Sequence record: PX436236.1
DNA: 64,000 bases
Source: a phage
Strand: one strand, 5' to 3'
Part shown: in pieces, positions 11,851 to 62,996 of the stretch
Layout: the number at the start of each line of letters is the position of its first letter
How positions within the stretch are numbered: position 1 is the first letter of the stretch
Position numbers and translations under genes: made by a program
Notes under the pieces: generated by a model
The model's input: the letters and a program-made list of their open reading frames with translations, nothing else
Told to the model about the DNA's origin: nothing
The model's database searches: none

Positions 11851-11892
11851 GTTGATAGAAAGATAGTACCACAAGCTTCCTTGCCTGTAAAC
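11851..11892 (-). promoter_or_regulatory. Early-promoter cassette
   Basis: GTTTAC, 17 nt, TACTAT, CTTTCTATCAAC, then GAGGAGAA RBS. Confidence 0.5.
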
Positions 11893-12461
11893 TAAAAATC
11901 CAACATTTTTAAATGAATTGTTTTATACTCGATTTCATACGGGTCTCTTTTGACGGTTTCGATTGCAACAATCTCAAATCGCGATTGGCTGGAGACCATG
12001 AACTCACATTCAGTTTCAACCATATCATAGAGGTCAATACGGGTTTCATCTATTTCAAGCTCATCTACATTCCCAGCAAGAACAAGGTCGATAGCATGAT
12101 TGTAGTAGTCGAAAATGAACGGTGCATTCCTGAGACTTAAAATGGTTTTGGTTCCATATTCCCATGCCCCTGCGAACTGACGAGCCTGAGAGTATTGTGT
12201 ACTAAAAGAAGTGACTCGACCAGGAGACCATTGACACCCTACTGAAAGGAGCTCTAATTGCTCAAGTTCTCTGGCGGTAATCCCACGATATAACTCTACT
12301 GGAACCGCTGAAGTAACATGCTTACGAACCAGCTTGTCAAGGTCGTAATGGAAGTTAGGGTCCTTTTTAGCATCCAGACATTTCTCTAACAAGGCTTGTT
12401 CAGATTTTGAAAATTTGGAATTGATTCGGTCTTGGTAAAGACATTTTTGTTCGATGTTCAT
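11892..12461 (-). CDS. modB: ADP-ribosyltransferase, Mod family (ModB-like), 189 aa
   Basis: R-S-E motifs: ELYRGI, SFSTQ, ECEFMV; paralog of the adjacent gene. Confidence 0.6.
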   Translation of the reverse strand: MNIEQKCLYQDRINSKFSKSEQALLEKCLDAKKDPNFHYDLDKLVRKHVTSAVPVELYRGITARELEQLELLSVGCQWSPGRVTSFSTQYSQARQFAGAWEYGTKTILSLRNAPFIFDYYNHAIDLVLAGNVDELEIDETRIDLYDMVETECEFMVSSQSRFEIVAIETVKRDPYEIEYKTIHLKMLDF

Positions 12462-12470
12462 ATGACCTCC

Positions 12471-12515
12471 GGTGATTTAGAGGTCATTATAACATGAAGG
12501 GAGGAGGTGTAAAAC
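12471..12515 (-). promoter_or_regulatory. Early promoter with RBS-containing hairpin
   Basis: GTTTTACA, spacer, TATAAT, then GACCTC...GGAGGTC inverted repeat that includes the SD. Confidence 0.45.
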
Positions 12516-12516
12516 T

Positions 12517-12705
12517 TTATTTTACCCAGGGAGCCCAGGGTGGAGGGTCTAAGTAATAAGAAGCAAGGTCACTAAGGACCTCTTTAGGCAACTTAAAACC
12601 ATGCTTCTGTATAATCATATCAAGTTCGTTGACAAGGTCAACAGGCGGCTCCTGAGTTGTTTCAGGCTCAGGGTCCGGAATGACAAACATATCAAATAAG
12701 TCCAT
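12517..12705 (-). CDS. hypothetical protein, 62 aa
   Basis: ORF. Confidence 0.4.
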   Translation of the reverse strand: MDLFDMFVIPDPEPETTQEPPVDLVNELDMIIQKHGFKLPKEVLSDLASYYLDPPPWAPWVK

Positions 12706-14167: not shown

Positions 14168-14401
14168 TTAAACTACTGGGGTCGGCGTAAACATCGCCGC
14201 GTTCTTAGTTCGCCAATCGGCTGCATCAGTTACTACAGTAGTGTATGCCGCCTTTTCAGAAGGAAATGTCTGATAGTGTGCATTCGCAATACGATGCTCG
14301 TTTGAATAGATTTCAAACGGAACAGATACTTCAACACCTTTAACTTCTTTACCTTCACCAGCCGGATGCGTAAAGGTTTTGATATTAACGAAACCACCCA
14401 T
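14168..14401 (-). CDS. soc: small outer capsid protein Soc, 77 aa
   Basis: GFVNIKTF ... ANAHYQTFPSEKAAY matches the remembered T4 Soc sequence. Confidence 0.8.
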   Translation of the reverse strand: MGGFVNIKTFTHPAGEGKEVKGVEVSVPFEIYSNEHRIANAHYQTFPSEKAAYTTVVTDAADWRTKNAAMFTPTPVV

Positions 14402-14432
14402 AATAAACTCCTTTGTTGTTTAATTACAGGTG

Positions 14433-14440
14433 TATTTATA
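14433..14440 (-). promoter_or_regulatory. Late promoter TATAAATA upstream of soc
   Basis: Exact TATAAATA on the minus strand about 30 nt before the soc ATG, then AAGGAG RBS. Confidence 0.5.
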
Positions 14441-32445: not shown

Positions 32446-33144
32446 TTAGAACGAGTGGCTTGAGCCTGCTTCCATAGCCAATACATAAGAAGCTTGTGAA
32501 CCTTCAAACTTGGCTGCGAAACGAGCGTCCTGACCTTCACCACGAGCCCATAACAATACATGGTAATCGGCAGGCATCATTTTCATATTAGTTTTGTTGA
32601 TAATGAATTTGAATTCAGGGCCATCATGGTCTGCAACCACTAAGGAATACAATGGACGGGCCAGGTCCTTATCATCAACTTGTTTGTAGCCATTGATTAC
32701 AATTTTACCATTGTCTACAGTAATAGCAAATGTATCAATACTCAGTCCAGAGGACACACGCATCAACTGTTGGTAATCTTCGGCTTTAAGGTCAAAAATA
32801 ACTTCAGCCACCGGGAACGGAATAGCTTTGCTTGGGAATGCAATTGTACTTGGGTCGGCAATAGGCCACTTAATAGTTGAACGTTGGTCTTTAATAATTA
32901 GAGTGGTTTGGTCTTCACTTACCGAAACTTCAGCACTTTCAGATACCAATGACAGAATACTTAAGAAGCCGTTCAGGTCGTAGATTGCGGCTTCGATATC
33001 AAAGGTATCACTTACAGTAGCTTCACCATAACTTGCACCCGTTACTGAACGAGTTAGAATAGTGTTACCAGGCTTAAGCATGATACCTGGGTTAATACTG
33101 GAGAAGTTTTTCAGAATGTTCAGAGTTTCTTTAGAGAATTTCAT
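32446..33144 (-). CDS. 45: sliding clamp gp45, 232 aa
   Basis: High similarity to T4 gp45 (MKFSKETLNILKNFSSINPGIMLK...). Confidence 0.9.
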   Translation of the reverse strand: MKFSKETLNILKNFSSINPGIMLKPGNTILTRSVTGASYGEATVSDTFDIEAAIYDLNGFLSILSLVSESAEVSVSEDQTTLIIKDQRSTIKWPIADPSTIAFPSKAIPFPVAEVIFDLKAEDYQQLMRVSSGLSIDTFAITVDNGKIVINGYKQVDDKDLARPLYSLVVADHDGPEFKFIINKTNMKMMPADYHVLLWARGEGQDARFAAKFEGSQASYVLAMEAGSSHSF

Positions 33145-37916: not shown

Positions 37917-38183
37917 TTAATCCTTTGGAGTCAATTCAATAGTGAAGTAGAAATTAGCGTTCTCAACATGATAACGGTAATCTACGTTATTGTCAGGAGA
38001 AGTGAATTCAATATTCCTGACGTTAAGTGGGTCAATATCAATAGGAAGACCTTTAACATCCCGTAATATCAATTTAATAAAATAAGGGAGTGCTTCGAAG
38101 TCTTCCATTCCATCTAAAAGTGGAGTGATATTAATCTGATGTTCCATATAAAAAATCCAGTTCACCAACTTTAGGTTGGGCAC
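37917..38183 (-). CDS. hypothetical protein, up to 88 aa
   Basis: ORF; start uncertain because it overlaps the gp55 C-terminus. Confidence 0.4.
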
Positions 38184-38688
38184 TCTTATCAGACCCTGGT
38201 GCTTTAGTTAAAGAGGTTTCATACTGAGTCATTTTGTCGTAGATATCTTGGATAAAGGTTTCATCTGCAATACCTACCATGTCGTCATCATTACTGTCAT
38301 AGACATTATGGACGAAGTAGCTATATTTCTTTGCCATTTCTTTACGTTCTTTTTTGATACGCTGAACGAAGGCATTAAAACAAGCCATAGTGATATATGC
38401 ATGTGGGTTGTCGTATTTTGTTTCGTCGAAGTTGTGAAGACCTTTAATCGAAGCTTCGATTCCATCAGCAATCATTTCTTGCTTCCAAGATTGGGTATAT
38501 CCTGAGAAGTTGAAACGTTTACTTAGTCCTTCAGCAATGAGCATAATAGCCAAGCCGATAACGTCGTTCTGGCGAACTATTTTATTAGGATCGGTATTTT
38601 CTCTGAGTTCTGTTTTCCATTGGGTGATAGCTTTCAGAAGCTCCTTATTATTTACATAGTTATTTTTAGTCAGTTTAATTTCGGTCAT
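38131..38688 (-). CDS. 55: late-transcription sigma factor gp55, 185 aa
   Basis: Near-identical central region to T4 gp55 ([52 protein letters not shown]). Confidence 0.92.
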
Positions 38689-41994: not shown

Positions 41995-43068
41995 TTAAGA
42001 TTTCAAATAAGTTATATAACTTTCCAACCATTCAATCATTTCTGATTTTTCGGCAGTAGTCATAGGATTAACTATATCTTTAAAACTGTTAAGCATTACT
42101 TGAGACGTAACTTTTGTCTTTTCGGTTTTTACCAATTCGATAGAGCCAAGTTTTTTAATATGGTCTTCTTTGCTTTCGACTACTAATTTAACAGCTCTTC
42201 CATCTTTAATAGCTTTGTTAGCCTGACCGCGAGTCATACCGTAAAATTCTTCTAACTCGGAATTGGATAAAAATTTTGTTCCTGAAGAAACGTCCTGAAA
42301 TTTATAACGCTGACGAGCAATATCTGGTGGAAGGCCCCATCGGTCTTTAATTAGGTCGAGGGTTCCTTGAAGAAGCCTTGTTAAATGGTTGCTACTTAAA
42401 TCATTATTACGAGCGAATTCGTTTTGATTTATTACTTCCACCGGCTTGTTTTCTTCATAGTCCCATATAGTAAATTTAGAGCAATTATAGGTAACAGAAT
42501 GTTTTTCCATTTTAGAACGACCAAATTGCCATCCAGATTTAATATACTCACTAACTTCATCAGGTTTAACGTACTTGGTTTTCTGGCCAATTTTATACAT
42601 CATAGGCCAAGAAACATGCTCATTCCCTTTATCAAATTCCATCCATCTTGCAATATCATCCTCTGTTAAATCGTCAAAGCAGTTAGGGTTGAAATGCCCG
42701 CCAATTTGTTTATTGAGCCACATAGGGTCTCGTAAAACATCATTGGCTAATTGCATTTCCATTTCTGCCATAAGAGTTTTACCCCAAGTAGGGTACCATC
42801 CTACAATAAGATATTCTTTTGGACTTATACCCTTTTCTATCATTGCGTTCAATTCATTGGATGATGAGGTATAGGTTTTCCAATCAGATTCCTCAAACCC
42901 TTTTTTAGGACCACGTTTAAATGTGCAAGGTGCAGCTTTGATTCGTTTCCAAATCTTTTTAGCACCGACATATTTTTTGCCATCTTCAAAAGTGATTACA
43001 TACACAAATCCAATATAATTTTTAATATCAACTTCTTCAAATACCGCCCAATGCCCGAAATCTTGCAT
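41995..43068 (-). CDS. GIY-YIG (Seg-type) homing endonuclease, 357 aa
   Basis: N-terminal GFVYVITFEDGKKYVGA motif (GIY...YIG variant). Confidence 0.55.
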   Translation of the reverse strand: MQDFGHWAVFEEVDIKNYIGFVYVITFEDGKKYVGAKKIWKRIKAAPCTFKRGPKKGFEESDWKTYTSSSNELNAMIEKGISPKEYLIVGWYPTWGKTLMAEMEMQLANDVLRDPMWLNKQIGGHFNPNCFDDLTEDDIARWMEFDKGNEHVSWPMMYKIGQKTKYVKPDEVSEYIKSGWQFGRSKMEKHSVTYNCSKFTIWDYEENKPVEVINQNEFARNNDLSSNHLTRLLQGTLDLIKDRWGLPPDIARQRYKFQDVSSGTKFLSNSELEEFYGMTRGQANKAIKDGRAVKLVVESKEDHIKKLGSIELVKTEKTKVTSQVMLNSFKDIVNPMTTAEKSEMIEWLESYITYLKS

Positions 43069-43105
43069 GACCTATACCCTTACCATTATTAGATAAGGGT
43101 ATTTA

Positions 43106-43315
43106 TTATTTTTCAAATGTACTATAAAACGAGCGATGCAACCGTTTAAATTGACGAATCATCTTTTTAGTAGGACGGGTGTATAACCCTACACAAGTGG
43201 CCATAAACTGATCAGTAGGACTTCCTTTAATAAGAAGTTTCCAGACTTTACCGCCATTTAACTTTTCAGTATAAATCAGTTCAGTTTTCATAGTAAAACC
43301 CATATTCCATATCAA
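43106..43315 (-). CDS. hypothetical protein, 69 aa
   Basis: ORF. Confidence 0.4.
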   Translation of the reverse strand: MIWNMGFTMKTELIYTEKLNGGKVWKLLIKGSPTDQFMATCVGLYTRPTKKMIRQFKRLHRSFYSTFEK

Positions 43316-59287: not shown

Positions 59288-59329
59288 GTTGATAGAAGTA
59301 TTCTATCACGGATTTAATTAAGCGTAAAT
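59288..59329 (-). promoter_or_regulatory. Early-promoter cassette variant (ATTTAC, 18 nt, TAGAAT, CTTCTATCAAC)
   Basis: Upstream of the 58975-59274 ORF. Confidence 0.45.
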
Positions 59330-59734
59330 AGCCTTGCCATAATGTTTGTACCAGGTAGGACGCTGTGCAATTTTTTCATCCAAACGGGTCTGAGATATAG
59401 CAATAGAAGCTTCGTGTGGAGTATAGTCACCACGGAATTCCTGAGGAATGTCACTAATGTCCTGGACAGTAGTATCCTTGATATTAAAACCACGTTTTAA
59501 ACATTCGGCTATAAGCTCAATTTGTCGCTTACGTAAAAATTCAAGCTTATCGTAAAAGAATGTAACATGGCCTGTGCCAAGGATAAAAGTAGGACTGATT
59601 TTGAAATCACGGACATGTTTACCATTAGCAACATGCTTACGAACTGCACCGAAAACACGTGGTAATTCACGATATTCAGCCATTAAGTGTTGGTCAGCCA
59701 ATTCAGATACTAAGGTAAGGTTGATACGAGTCAT
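59318..59734 (-). CDS. denV: endonuclease V (pyrimidine dimer glycosylase) DenV, 138 aa
   Basis: Near-identical to T4 DenV from [28 protein letters not shown]; start set at MTRINL. Confidence 0.92.
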
Positions 59735-59763
59735 TTTAGTGTTCTCCATGTTTGTATGAGAAC

Positions 59764-59792
59764 ACTATATCACAACTATCGTAAAAATAAAC
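59764..59792 (-). promoter_or_regulatory. Early promoter upstream of denV (GTTTAT, 17 nt, TGATATAGT)
   Basis: Sigma-70-like elements with extended -10. Confidence 0.4.
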
Positions 59793-59794
59793 CG

Positions 59795-60097
59795 TTATTT
59801 ACCTTTAATTGCTTTAGCTGCTTCGGTAGCCGCTTGCTGAAGGTCATCCATAGACATACCGAACTTAGAAGCAAAGTTATCAATTTTCTTTTCGACAGAA
59901 TTCAAAGGCTTGGCCTGTTTACCTTCATTAGCGCCTGGGAGAGCGAGAATACGCTCTTTGTCAATATAAAGGCTTACAAGTTTCTTACGGTCTTTATCGG
60001 GCAAATCATGAAATGAATGGGCCTTTTTATTTACGGCGGCTTCTAATTTACCCGCACTTACTCGCGCTTCGGTGATAAATTCTTGATAGGTTTTCAT
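59795..60097 (-). CDS. internal-protein-like packaged protein, 100 aa
   Basis: N-terminus MKTYQEFITEA. Confidence 0.55.
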   Translation of the reverse strand: MKTYQEFITEARVSAGKLEAAVNKKAHSFHDLPDKDRKKLVSLYIDKERILALPGANEGKQAKPLNSVEKKIDNFASKFGMSMDDLQQAATEAAKAIKGK

Positions 60098-60138
60098 ATG
60101 TTTCCTTTAAATGTAAATAGGTCCGAGTATTCGCTTTA

Positions 60139-60735
60139 TTAATTACCACGGGCTGCATTAGCAACGGCGTAAGCGTACTGAATATTAGCGTCTTTAAACG
60201 TACCTTTAGAGGTATCTAGTTCTGCCTTAAAGCCGCCTTTAACCATAACATCAGCAAATTCTTTACGGAAAGTCATTGCATCAAGACCTTTCCATGCGGA
60301 TTTATGCTTGGCAAATTCAAGACCGGCGAAGTTAACTGCTTTAGCCAATTTATTATCAATAGTCCATTTACCTGCTTTAGGTACAAACACCGGGCCTTTC
60401 TGTTTAGAGAACAGTTTTAAATTCCAGCGACGAAGGTCACCGTCAGCTTTAACAAAAGCTGCGTCCAAGTTACTAGCAACAACATCTTGGATATGGGCAA
60501 ATTTAAGTCCATCAGCTTCAATATTTAGGTCGTTACGCCAGCGAAGTCCTTCCCAGGCGAAAGCTTTAAAGTCGGAAGCTTTTGTAGCCAAGTACCGTTC
60601 AATAGGAGCTGTTTTAGCGTCAAAACCGTTTCCTGGGTTGTCAACGCCGTTTCCTTTGTAAGTCCACTCATCTTTATTAATGCCTTGGACCTTTCCTACA
60701 GAAGCTTCGGCGATAAATTCTTTATACGTTTTCAT
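60139..60735 (-). CDS. internal-protein-like packaged protein, 198 aa
   Basis: N-terminus MKTYKEFIAEA. Confidence 0.55.
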   Translation of the reverse strand: MKTYKEFIAEASVGKVQGINKDEWTYKGNGVDNPGNGFDAKTAPIERYLATKASDFKAFAWEGLRWRNDLNIEADGLKFAHIQDVVASNLDAAFVKADGDLRRWNLKLFSKQKGPVFVPKAGKWTIDNKLAKAVNFAGLEFAKHKSAWKGLDAMTFRKEFADVMVKGGFKAELDTSKGTFKDANIQYAYAVANAARGN

Positions 60736-60786
60736 ACGGGTTCCTTAAAGGAAAATATTTTAATTGGTCTGTTCAAGTAACTGTAG

Positions 60787-60818
60787 ATATACTATCACAA
60801 TTCTAGGAGATGTAAACT
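60787..60818 (-). promoter_or_regulatory. Early promoter (GTTTACATCTCC, TGATAGTAT)
   Basis: Partial member of the cassette family, upstream of the 198-aa internal-protein gene. Confidence 0.45.
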
Positions 60819-61216
60819 TATTTATAGGTCTTCATCCAATTCTTGAACAAAGCCGCGACGTCTTTCTCTTTAACGTTCAGTTTAATGTCCAACATTTTAC
60901 CACCCGCTGCTCTGGTTTGGCGAATCTTAGCAGTACCGGTTTCGCCATTCCACTCAACATAATACTGTCCAGTGTTCATTGCAATACCATCACCGTAGTC
61001 TTCATTTTTAGAAGTGGTGAATGCTAGCTTCATAGTCTTAGATACATGAGCCTGCATGCCTGTCTGAAGGGCATTACGAACGCGAATAACCTGAGGAGTG
61101 GCCTGGGTCAAGTTCTCATTCAGTTCTTCAGTGAACTCTTCAGATTCAAACATCGCCAAAAGTTCTTTAGATGCAGGAATTACATTCTCTGCGATAAATT
61201 CATTATAAGTTTTCAT
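60818..61216 (-). CDS. internal-protein-like packaged protein, 132 aa
   Basis: N-terminus [11 protein letters not shown]. Confidence 0.55.
60821..60828 (-). promoter_or_regulatory. Late promoter TATAAATA
   Basis: Exact octamer immediately upstream of the early promoter, giving the internal-protein gene both early and late signals. Confidence 0.4.
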
Positions 61217-61697
61217 ATGCTTTCCAAGTACCTGTTTTAAATGTTGAAATCACGCGCTTAGCACGATTAGGAGTTTGTTTATACCAACGGGATTGAGCCA
61301 GGTTAACTGCCGCATCGTTCCAACGTTTCTGTTGGAGCATACGTAAAGAGTTAGTGAACCCTGCTACGCCTGCTTCACCCATTTGGAAGACCATGTTAAT
61401 TAAAGCACAACGACGAACTTCGTCCAGTACATCATAAACAGGTTTCAATTTAGGATTACGCAGAATAGCTCTACGAGCATTTTCAACCGATCGGTTAAAG
61501 AGTTGTTCAGCTTCAGCCATAGTAATACGACCATTACAAACTCGACCTATAAGCTTATCAAGTTCAGCACGAGCAACATCTTTAGAAGGGTTCTTAGTAA
61601 TCAATTGGCCGATACCAATAGTCCAATAACCTTCAGTGTCTTTATAAAGATTTAAATCAAGACCTTCGTCTTGACGTAACATATCAAAAATATCCAT
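61203..61697 (-). CDS. e: lysozyme (endolysin, gene e), 164 aa
   Basis: Near-identical to T4 lysozyme ([16 protein letters not shown] ... [30 protein letters not shown]). Confidence 0.95.
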
Positions 61698-61727
61698 AAT
61701 ACCTCCTGAGTATAGGAGGTATTTATA
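61698..61727 (-). promoter_or_regulatory. Late promoter TATAAATA plus SD-sequestering hairpin upstream of gene e
   Basis: Minus strand: TATAAATA-CCTCCTATACTCAGGAGG-TATT-ATG; 7-bp stem pairs ACCTCCT with AGGAGGT. Confidence 0.6.
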
Positions 61728-62177
61728 TCAAAAGAGCGAATCTAAAACCTTAAACATCGACGGGCCCATGACATATTCCCATTGCGGACGTTTAATCAAG
61801 GCAAAAGCATCAAATTCAGGAATAGTACGACCGTCAGGGAACGTATGGTAAGCCGTACATTTGCAATCCTTGAACTGCTCGTGTTCCACAGGCACCGTAT
61901 ATAAGAACAGATGTAGATTCTTATTGCTTGAATATTTGAACTCACCCAGGTCTTTCAGGAACGCAGGATCGTATGCTGTGAATCCAATCTCTTCTTCGGT
62001 TTCGCGCATTGCCGCTTGAATGGGCTCTTCGCCTGGTTCGACATGACCCTTAGGAATGTCCCATTTATGACGCATATTCTCTGGATTACGAGAGCCTGTT
62101 ACACGGCCCATGACCAGTTCTTTATCAACGGTCATGAATAAAATACCGGCAGATAGTTCTTTCACTTTCTTACTCAT
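61728..62177 (-). CDS. nudE: Nudix hydrolase NudE, 149 aa
   Basis: Nudix box GHVEPGEEPIQAAMRETEEEIGF; start set at MSKKVKEL. Confidence 0.75.
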   Translation of the reverse strand: MSKKVKELSAGILFMTVDKELVMGRVTGSRNPENMRHKWDIPKGHVEPGEEPIQAAMRETEEEIGFTAYDPAFLKDLGEFKYSSNKNLHLFLYTVPVEHEQFKDCKCTAYHTFPDGRTIPEFDAFALIKRPQWEYVMGPSMFKVLDSLF

Positions 62178-62406
62178 CGTCTCGTTCCCATGATTGTTTA
62201 AAAATATCTTGCATAATAATTTGAAGTCTATTTTCTGATGATGGACTTTCACTATCAGACACTTGAAGCATATAGTCACCAATAGGACAGAACATATCCA
62301 TATCGCTTTCTAAGTCTTCTTTAATTTTCTCTTCTGATGTTCCGGTATCATAGGAATACAGGTAAGAATCACATGACTCAGATTTAATATAAATTGCAAT
62401 ACTCAT
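62170..62406 (-). CDS. hypothetical acidic protein, 78 aa
   Basis: ORF. Confidence 0.45.
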   Translation of the reverse strand: MSIAIYIKSESCDSYLYSYDTGTSEEKIKEDLESDMDMFCPIGDYMLQVSDSESPSSENRLQIIMQDIFKQSWERDDE

Positions 62407-62996
62407 TTACGGCATTCCTCAATAAACTCATTTAAATTCTGTTTGATTTTACCTTCGTCGTAAAGACGTTGTTGACGACGTAAACGCCATGGCATTTCAA
62501 TAGCCAAGCACCAAATACTTAAAGCAGCGCCAGCGGCGGCAAGGTTCATTAATCCAGCGCCAATAATAGTTCGTTCTAGCGCATCATTCCAGTTGGCATC
62601 GATTAAAAATGAACTCAGCACTAACATTGGAAGTAAAGTAATAAAATACGCTACAACATATCGTCCGAACGTAAGCCATTCAGTATCAATGAGCCTGGCC
62701 TTTCCATCTTGGAGACAAATATACTTATCGTCAGTGCGAGTGATTTTCTTTACTGGTTGCCAGCCGTTTACAATATAGCCCATTTTATATTCCTCAATTA
62801 AAAGCTGTTTCATTTCGGCAGTACAACCTGACCAATCTATTGTACTGGCTGAAATTCCTTCATCACCGTCATCGATATTTCGCCAGGACTTTTTAATAAT
62901 CATATGTTCACCACTTGGGATAATAATTCCGGCATTTTCCGACCTACGGATGAAGTTTGTATCAATACCCATACATCCAGGTTCATAAAGGGCCAT
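62403..62996 (-). CDS. membrane protein, 197 aa
   Basis: C-terminal hydrophobic helices. Confidence 0.5.
   Translation of the reverse strand: MALYEPGCMGIDTNFIRRSENAGIIIPSGEHMIIKKSWRNIDDGDEGISASTIDWSGCTAEMKQLLIEEYKMGYIVNGWQPVKKITRTDDKYICLQDGKARLIDTEWLTFGRYVVAYFITLLPMLVLSSFLIDANWNDALERTIIGAGLMNLAAAGAALSIWCLAIEMPWRLRRQQRLYDEGKIKQNLNEFIEECRK

Follow-up and report, generated by a model that had tools for sequence, protein, structure and literature searches.

A late promoter running into a Shine-Dalgarno-sequestering hairpin: probably the Dhakavirus ortholog of the switch that times gene e translation in T4

Premature lysozyme carries the risk of lysing the host before progeny have been assembled. 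The question raised by the lysozyme gene e of the phage studied here (sequence record PX436236.1) is whether its leader holds a hairpin that keeps e in an early transcription unit while confining its translation to late times. We analysed a stretch of 64,000 nucleotides of this phage, referred to as the window, in which e lies on the minus strand directly downstream of the Nudix hydrolase gene nudE (Table 1). A sequence-only reading had placed a T4-type late promoter immediately before e, followed by a 7-bp hairpin with the Shine-Dalgarno sequence (SD) in its 3' arm, and had matched this arrangement to the mechanism known from T4.

The minus strand reads, in order, ctcttt TGA TATAAATA CCTCCT ATACTC AGGAGG TATT ATG GAT ATT, and the 33 nt up to the start codon are wholly taken up by stop codon, promoter, anti-SD, loop and SD. 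The nudE stop codon TGA (61730-61728) is adjoined without a gap by the late-promoter motif TATAAATA, found at 61727-61720 on the minus strand, and the last 4 nt of this motif are shared with the 5' arm of the hairpin. The SD, AGGAGG (61707-61702), indeed lies inside the 3' arm, which ends at the base before the AUG, and the span originally assigned to the element, 61698-61727, is exact, running from the first T of TATAAATA to the final base of that arm. The stem had been drawn too short: the proposed 7 bp, ACCTCCT (61720-61714) with AGGAGGT (61707-61701), are present but form the core of a perfect 10-bp inverted repeat in which AATACCTCCT (61723-61714) pairs with AGGAGGTATT (61707-61698). The lysozyme open reading frame begins with the ATG at 61697 and matches Pfam Phage_lysozyme (PF00959; 1.1e-12).

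Table 1. Features of the gene e leader and its flanking genes, in window coordinates.
Feature	Position	Strand	Basis
nudE (e.1), Nudix hydrolase gene	61728..62177	-	ORF list; Pfam NUDIX 7.5e-15; nudix hydrolase annotation in QL01, JS98 and T4
T4-type late promoter motif TATAAATA (gp55-dependent -10-like element, -13 to -6)	61720..61727	-	Exact match; rule from PMC1524935
Hairpin 5' arm AAUACCUCCU (anti-SD)	61714..61723	-	Perfect 10-bp inverted repeat; RNA folds
Predicted late +1	61713..61714	-	Rule that the motif spans -13 to -6 (PMC1524935)
Hairpin loop AUACUC, 6 nt	61708..61713	-	Comparison with T4; covariance-model-based alignment
Hairpin 3' arm AGGAGGUAUU	61698..61707	-	Sequence, inverted repeat, folding
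Gene e, T4-type soluble lysozyme (endolysin), 164 aa	61203..61697	-	ORF; Pfam PF00959; e/endolysin annotation in relatives

Comparison with other genomes identified the source of the window as a JS98-like Dhakavirus. Over 1.2 kb, identity reaches 99.2% with Escherichia phage QL01 and 90% with JS98, two members of the genus Dhakavirus, and a 301-nt query over the nudE-e junction matched about 1000 T4-like phage records. The window lysozyme is identical to T4 e at 124 of 164 residues (76%), and the gene order nudE, e, internal-protein genes is common to the window, T4, JS98 and QL01. Furthermore, near-identical leaders are found in T4, JS98 and QL01, and Yersinia phage fPS-65 carries an annotated predicted late promoter at the corresponding place. 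Judged by these similarities, the window element is orthologous to the leader of T4 gene e in both position and sequence.

The region downstream of e (59795-61216, minus strand) has features of its own. Three consecutive open reading frames (60818-61216, 60139-60735 and 59795-60097) start with MKTY(N/K/Q)EFI(A/T)E, which we take to be the capsid-targeting N-terminus of internal proteins. The first of them (132 aa) begins 14 nt within the 3' end of e, and it is ordered differently with respect to the ipIII-like gene than in JS98, which points to a shuffled internal-protein cassette region. Both a copy of TATAAATA (60826-60819) and a GTTTAC-type early promoter match (60817-60789) precede the ipIII-like gene.

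We then asked how stable the leader hairpin is predicted to be. The 41-nt segment folds at -14.1 kcal/mol, compared with -6.9 +/- 2.5 kcal/mol for shuffles (z -2.9; 5 of 200 shuffles were as stable), and the hairpin is retained in the MFE and centroid structures of both the 81-nt and the 150-nt context. The window has 85 ATG starts that combine an SD-like motif with an ORF of 60 codons or more; among their leaders, each folded from -40 to +3, that of e ranked first for stability with the SD fully paired. Within the read-through RNA the SD bases are predicted to be 98.7% paired (mean unpaired probability 0.013), and opening the segment from SD to AUG would cost 12.6-12.8 kcal/mol in read-through RNAs as against 3.6-4.0 kcal/mol once the RNA begins at 61714 or 61713. 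RNA that begins at the predicted late +1 folds at -3.2 kcal/mol (z -0.1), with some predicted pairing of the SD to downstream U-rich sequence in the late-type transcript (mean unpaired probability 0.21-0.23). A scan of 61000-62500 against Rfam (E<=1) matched no family; the e-leader element therefore belongs to no curated RNA family.

Where late transcription would begin depends on the rule that the T4 late promoter motif occupies -13 to -6, its T at -13 often being an A in relatives (PMC1524935). Applied to the window, the rule predicts a late +1 at the sixth or seventh nucleotide past the last A of TATAAATA, that is, at 61714, the U that closes the 5' arm, or at 61713, the A with which the loop opens. 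The predicted start thus falls at the end of the 5' arm, so that the placement of TATAAATA would exclude the 5' strand of the helix from the late transcript; a start 3-5 nt farther upstream would keep part of the anti-SD. The loop stretch TATACTCA mismatches the late-promoter motif at three positions, and e therefore appears to have a single late promoter.

By count, the 8-mer TATAAATA is not enriched in the window (5 found, 7.1 expected), and the evidence for the promoter therefore lies in its position and its conservation in relatives rather than in its frequency. All five copies are on the coding strand. The shorter ATAAATA is about 3-fold depleted over the whole window (8 found versus 25.8 +/- 4.8 expected, every shuffle having at least 8) and lies on the coding strand in seven of its eight copies. 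Depletion and strand bias fit the pattern of a functional signal that is avoided elsewhere. A search for the late transcription machinery covered the late sigma factor gp55 and the clamp gp45, gp33 being outside this window in T4-like genomes; both were found on the minus strand (gp55 at 38131-38688, gp45 at 32446-33144) and are 99% identical to the QL01 proteins by tblastn.

Does transcription from upstream reach e? The genes from 63990 to 61728 are co-oriented, contiguous and gap-free in the ORF list, and the terminator scan gave no terminator-like site between the upstream genes and e. Matches to T4-type early promoters lie 4.4-7.5 kb upstream of e on the same strand in QL01, which is 99% identical, together with a MotA-box match that is also upstream of e; the matches to the early promoter pattern GTTTAC-N15-18-TANNNT number 9 against 1.1 expected. 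Because the minus strand of the window from 61728 to its end contains no early or middle promoter match, we infer early read-through into e from the contiguous genes, the lack of a terminator and the QL01 promoter matches, which make it plausible. Across the whole window, GTTTAC-N15-18-TANNNT occurs 21 times (3.6 expected), with 19 of the matches on the minus strand, and MotA-box middle promoters are matched 14 times (3.2 expected); a generic sigma-70 scan stayed at shuffle level (12 found, 11.7 expected). Many of the window early promoters share the spacer start ATCTCCT.

In order to judge whether the stem is maintained among relatives, we gathered e leaders from IMG/VR contigs and annotated phages. 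Of the 19 distinct e leaders examined, 17 carried the motif, one lacked it and one duplicated another leader. All 17 motif-carrying leaders (15 distinct stem classes) have NATAAATA, i.e. (T/A/G)ATAAATA, followed by an SD-sequestering stem of 7-12 bp, and their 5' arm ends at motif-relative position 13-17, the predicted +1 being at 14/15. They represent at least ten T4-like genera, among them Tequatro-, Dhaka-, Karam-, Winkler-, Gelderland-, Jiaoda-, Moon- and Marfavirus, and also include PEi20- and PM2-type phages, VR25/VR26, PTE-Eco05 and MHG19.

A plain MAFFT alignment put the two lineage groups one column out of register and was replaced by a hand-made structure-anchored table and a covariance-model alignment. 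In the table, none of the 15 stem classes departs from standard pairing in the core or on the loop side, and three pairs show double-sided changes. U-A is replaced by C-G in VR25 and MHG19, where the SD is GGGG; C-G gives way to U-A via U·G in SEA1, VR25 and MHG19; and C-G becomes A-U in Winklervirus. The helix grows outward through AAUA/UAUU in one lineage group (ATAC-CUCC) and inward through UAUC/GAUA in the other (ATA-CUCC), on opposite sides of a constant CUCC/GGAG core; a helix is thus preserved by different sequences. Stems of T4, SEA1, VR25 and PTE-Eco05 contain G·U pairs, which fit a helix in the sense-strand RNA only and hence argue against a DNA palindrome or an antisense RNA.

The covariance model was built from nine leaders and recovers the e leader in the relatives searched, with the exception of Moon (L092). 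Its alignment, which is itself fitted to the structure model and sets the 3' arm of MHG19 one column off, has 83% of cells paired compared with 40-53% when partners are slid by 1-3 columns, a covariation score of 0.110 compared with 0.073 +/- 0.008 for shuffles (1 of 500 shuffles reaches 0.110), and two pairs with double-sided changes. Conservation and covariation thus suggest that the helix is kept by selection, with support that is real but modest, since the SD is constrained for its own reasons.

A strong SD-sequestering hairpin also precedes the e homolog of a more distant T4-like phage, represented by a 183-kb IMG/VR contig (L022, at about 1455-1495). It consists of CCTCTTCTAAA/TTTAGAGGAGG, the 75-nt segment folding at -25.5 kcal/mol, and its loop has AATATAAT without ATAAATA; the promoter type may therefore differ there.

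The T4 gene e leader hairpin was reportedly established by experiment by McPheeters, Christensen, Young, Stormo and Gold in 1986 (Nucleic Acids Res 14:5813). According to a review (PMC3014915, citing McPheeters 1986), T4 early transcripts reaching into e form an inhibitory structure, with lysozyme synthesis lowered about 100-fold; T4 has two late promoters, and RNA begun at either one is efficiently translated because the 5' portion of that structure is missing from it; and closely related T4-type phages have similar e leaders in which the late promoter encodes the 5' strand. The T4 late 5' ends used here were taken from this review together with the -13 to -6 rule. A multi-omics paper on T4 (PMC9697503) makes no mention of lysozyme.

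We attribute the T4 mechanism to the window phage because of homology and folding, and consider the leader, with a probability of roughly 0.88, to be the Dhakavirus ortholog of the switch by which T4 times the translation of gene e. The match to T4 drawn by the sequence-only reading gains support from the orthologous leader, the shared synteny, the predicted fold and the published T4 data. Before replication, early and middle transcripts from several kilobases upstream would run through the packed e.x genes and nudE into e. In such read-through RNA the 10-bp helix of AAUACCUCCU and AGGAGGUAUU would bury the SD up to the base before the AUG, 30S subunits would be barred, and no lysozyme would be made. 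After the onset of replication, RNA polymerase modified by gp55, gp33 and gp45 would use TATAAATA (61727-61720) and start at about 61714/61713. Late transcripts would then lack the 5' arm, leaving the SD free in a 17-nt leader and permitting late translation of lysozyme. For the window phage itself we infer where late transcripts begin, that early ones run through into e, and how translation responds.

On a broader reading, which seems rather unlikely, the switch may be one case of a general rule in T4-like phages by which a gene is translated only from its own promoter, the layout recurring at modB with an early-type promoter and perhaps at denV. In this lineage, moreover, e has one late start and a nudE stop 4 nt from the stem, which could render its expression leaky or coupled to nudE instead of strictly off early. 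Other explanations of the same arrangement were weighed against the timing switch.

A classic mechanism of translational coupling uses an RBS-sequestering helix that is opened when the gene upstream is translated, and ribosomes ending at the nudE UGA (61730-61728) might likewise unwind the 5' arm, e then being translated on read-through mRNA in proportion to nudE instead of being silenced. The geometry fits, since 4 nt separate the stem from the stop codon, which adjoins the promoter motif, and several relatives have an upstream stop codon within or beside the NATAAATA motif. However, T4 has the same geometry, and its early mRNA yields about 100-fold less lysozyme according to PMC3014915. Coupling also leaves unexplained why a late promoter stands beside the 5' arm in 17/17 motif-carrying leaders, and the arrangement is kept in SEA1, KP17 and MHG19, where the upstream gene is not nudE. 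We therefore regard coupling as the main function of the element as very unlikely. Given the 4 nt between nudE stop and stem, some early leak or coupling may nevertheless occur if terminating ribosomes briefly open the 5' arm, a caveat that holds for T4 too.

Alternatively, the hairpin might act at the level of RNA ends or processing, as an intrinsic terminator, as a stabiliser of the nudE 3' end, or as a shield of the SD GGAG against the endoribonuclease RegB. It is a stable, G+C-rich hairpin right after a stop codon; it has GGAG, given as the RegB target motif in PMC1702504; and QL01 has a RegB-like gene, annotated as a site-specific RNA endonuclease. Yet the stem in all motif-carrying leaders contains the e SD and is flanked by the late promoter, which would be needless in a nudE 3' element, and the Rfam scan gave no match. 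The stem is followed by AUGGAUAUUUUUG rather than by a U-run and the terminator scan had nothing at the hairpin position, on which grounds the terminator reading was rejected. Taken as a whole, this explanation appears highly improbable, with the qualification that a RegB shield is compatible with the timing switch and the two are not exclusive.

A 10-bp DNA operator bound by a dimeric protein that occludes the late promoter, suggested by the perfect palindrome overlapping the promoter and by the precedent of I-TevI, which binds an operator over its own late promoter (PMC2988022), was rejected because the conserved G·U wobbles of T4, SEA1, VR25 and PTE-Eco05 would be mismatches in duplex DNA and on the antisense strand, and pairing is kept in relatives as the stem letters change; a chance inverted repeat is opposed by the shuffles (5/200 as stable), the rank of 1/85 and conservation across genera, so that this last pair of readings is scarcely credible.

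Layouts resembling the e leader were seen at other places in the window. The modB-like ORF (11892-12461, named after the QL01 annotation) has a leader (12459-12525, minus strand) in which the hairpin TGACCTC(T)...GGAGGTCA comes straight after an early-type promoter, TTTACA-17-TATAAT, with the SD buried to one base before the ATG. At -13.0 kcal/mol this hairpin is the second most stable SD-pairing leader in the window, and the -10 element of the promoter overlaps its 5' arm. The T4 modB leader has the same layout with other stem letters, namely GTTTAC...TATGAT and, after it, GATAGCTTCT/GGAGGCTATC, two of whose pairs are G·U. Against the e-leader covariance model the window modB leader scores 23.3 bits (E 0.035), and a literature search found no description of a modB leader hairpin. 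modB may be translated only from transcripts of its own promoter.

Upstream of the ORF at 41998-43068, which encodes a 357-aa SegE-like GIY-YIG homing endonuclease (Pfam PF19835, 5e-34), the late-type motif AATAAATA leads into the hairpin ATACCCTTA/TAAGGGTAT, which closely precedes the ATG (43066-43106, minus strand). The design is that seen at gene e and published for I-TevI, segB and mobE. The QL01 annotation lists no gene of this size in the corresponding gene 49 region, and the modB-to-e interval is about 2 kb longer in the window than in QL01; the SegE-like gene may therefore be a mobile insert.

The leader of denV (59321-59734), at 59734-59775 on the minus strand, contains the hairpin TAGTGTTCTC/GGAGAACACTA (-12.8 kcal/mol), which pairs the SD and whose 5' arm overlaps a TATAGT -10-like hexamer. 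It differs from the QL01 leader, where a GTTTAC-type early promoter match occupies the corresponding place. The combination of promoter and SD hairpin may also exist at denV. At soc, TATAAATA lies 39 nt upstream of the ATG (leader 14399-14440, minus strand), and the region around the start codon is predicted to pair with bases that closely follow the promoter; the match of this leader to the e-leader model is weak (17.8 bits, E 0.72).

Set side by side, the leaders of T4 (TATAAATACCTTCTATAAATACTTAGGAGGTATTATG) and of the window (TATAAATACCTCCTATACTCAGGAGGTATTATG) share the segment from SD to AUG, GGAGGTATTATG, without a difference, and in both phages TATAAATA overlaps the 5' arm that begins AAUACC. 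The stability of the segment from promoter to AUG is similar as well (-14.1 kcal/mol in the window, -13.3 kcal/mol in T4). Differences are small: a U·G stem pair of T4 is C-G in the window, the stem measures 11 bp in T4 and 10 bp in the window, and the nudE stop that adjoins the motif in the window is separated from it by a 3-nt spacer in T4. The 8-nt loop of T4 holds a second TATAAATA and thereby provides two late promoters, whereas the window has a 6-nt loop, ATACTC, and one late promoter.

The device is thus real but ordinary and already known, as is its conservation in relatives. This JS98-like instance adds no new principle; it belongs to a textbook case in which promoter choice sets translation through the position of the mRNA 5' end, and it confirms that many T4-like genera retain the device with minor, compensated changes. 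Its use lies in annotation, where it helps to place the late promoter and the start codon of e and to assign the gene to an expression class.

The same logic is known from the T-even homing endonuclease genes I-TevI, I-TevII, I-TevIII and segB and from Aeh1 mobE, where an RBS-sequestering helix forms on early and middle read-through RNA and late transcripts lack its 5' strand (PMC2988022). Genes and sequences are unrelated to those of the e leader, so that these systems are analogous and not orthologous, and I-TevI has, beyond the hairpin, an operator for autorepression over its late promoter (PMC2988022). The leaders of T4 soc, 49, 39, 25 and 26 are likewise repressed by pairing of the SD, the AUG or both (PMC3014915, PMC2988022); their helices and registers differ from those of e, and some of this regulation is independent of promoter choice.
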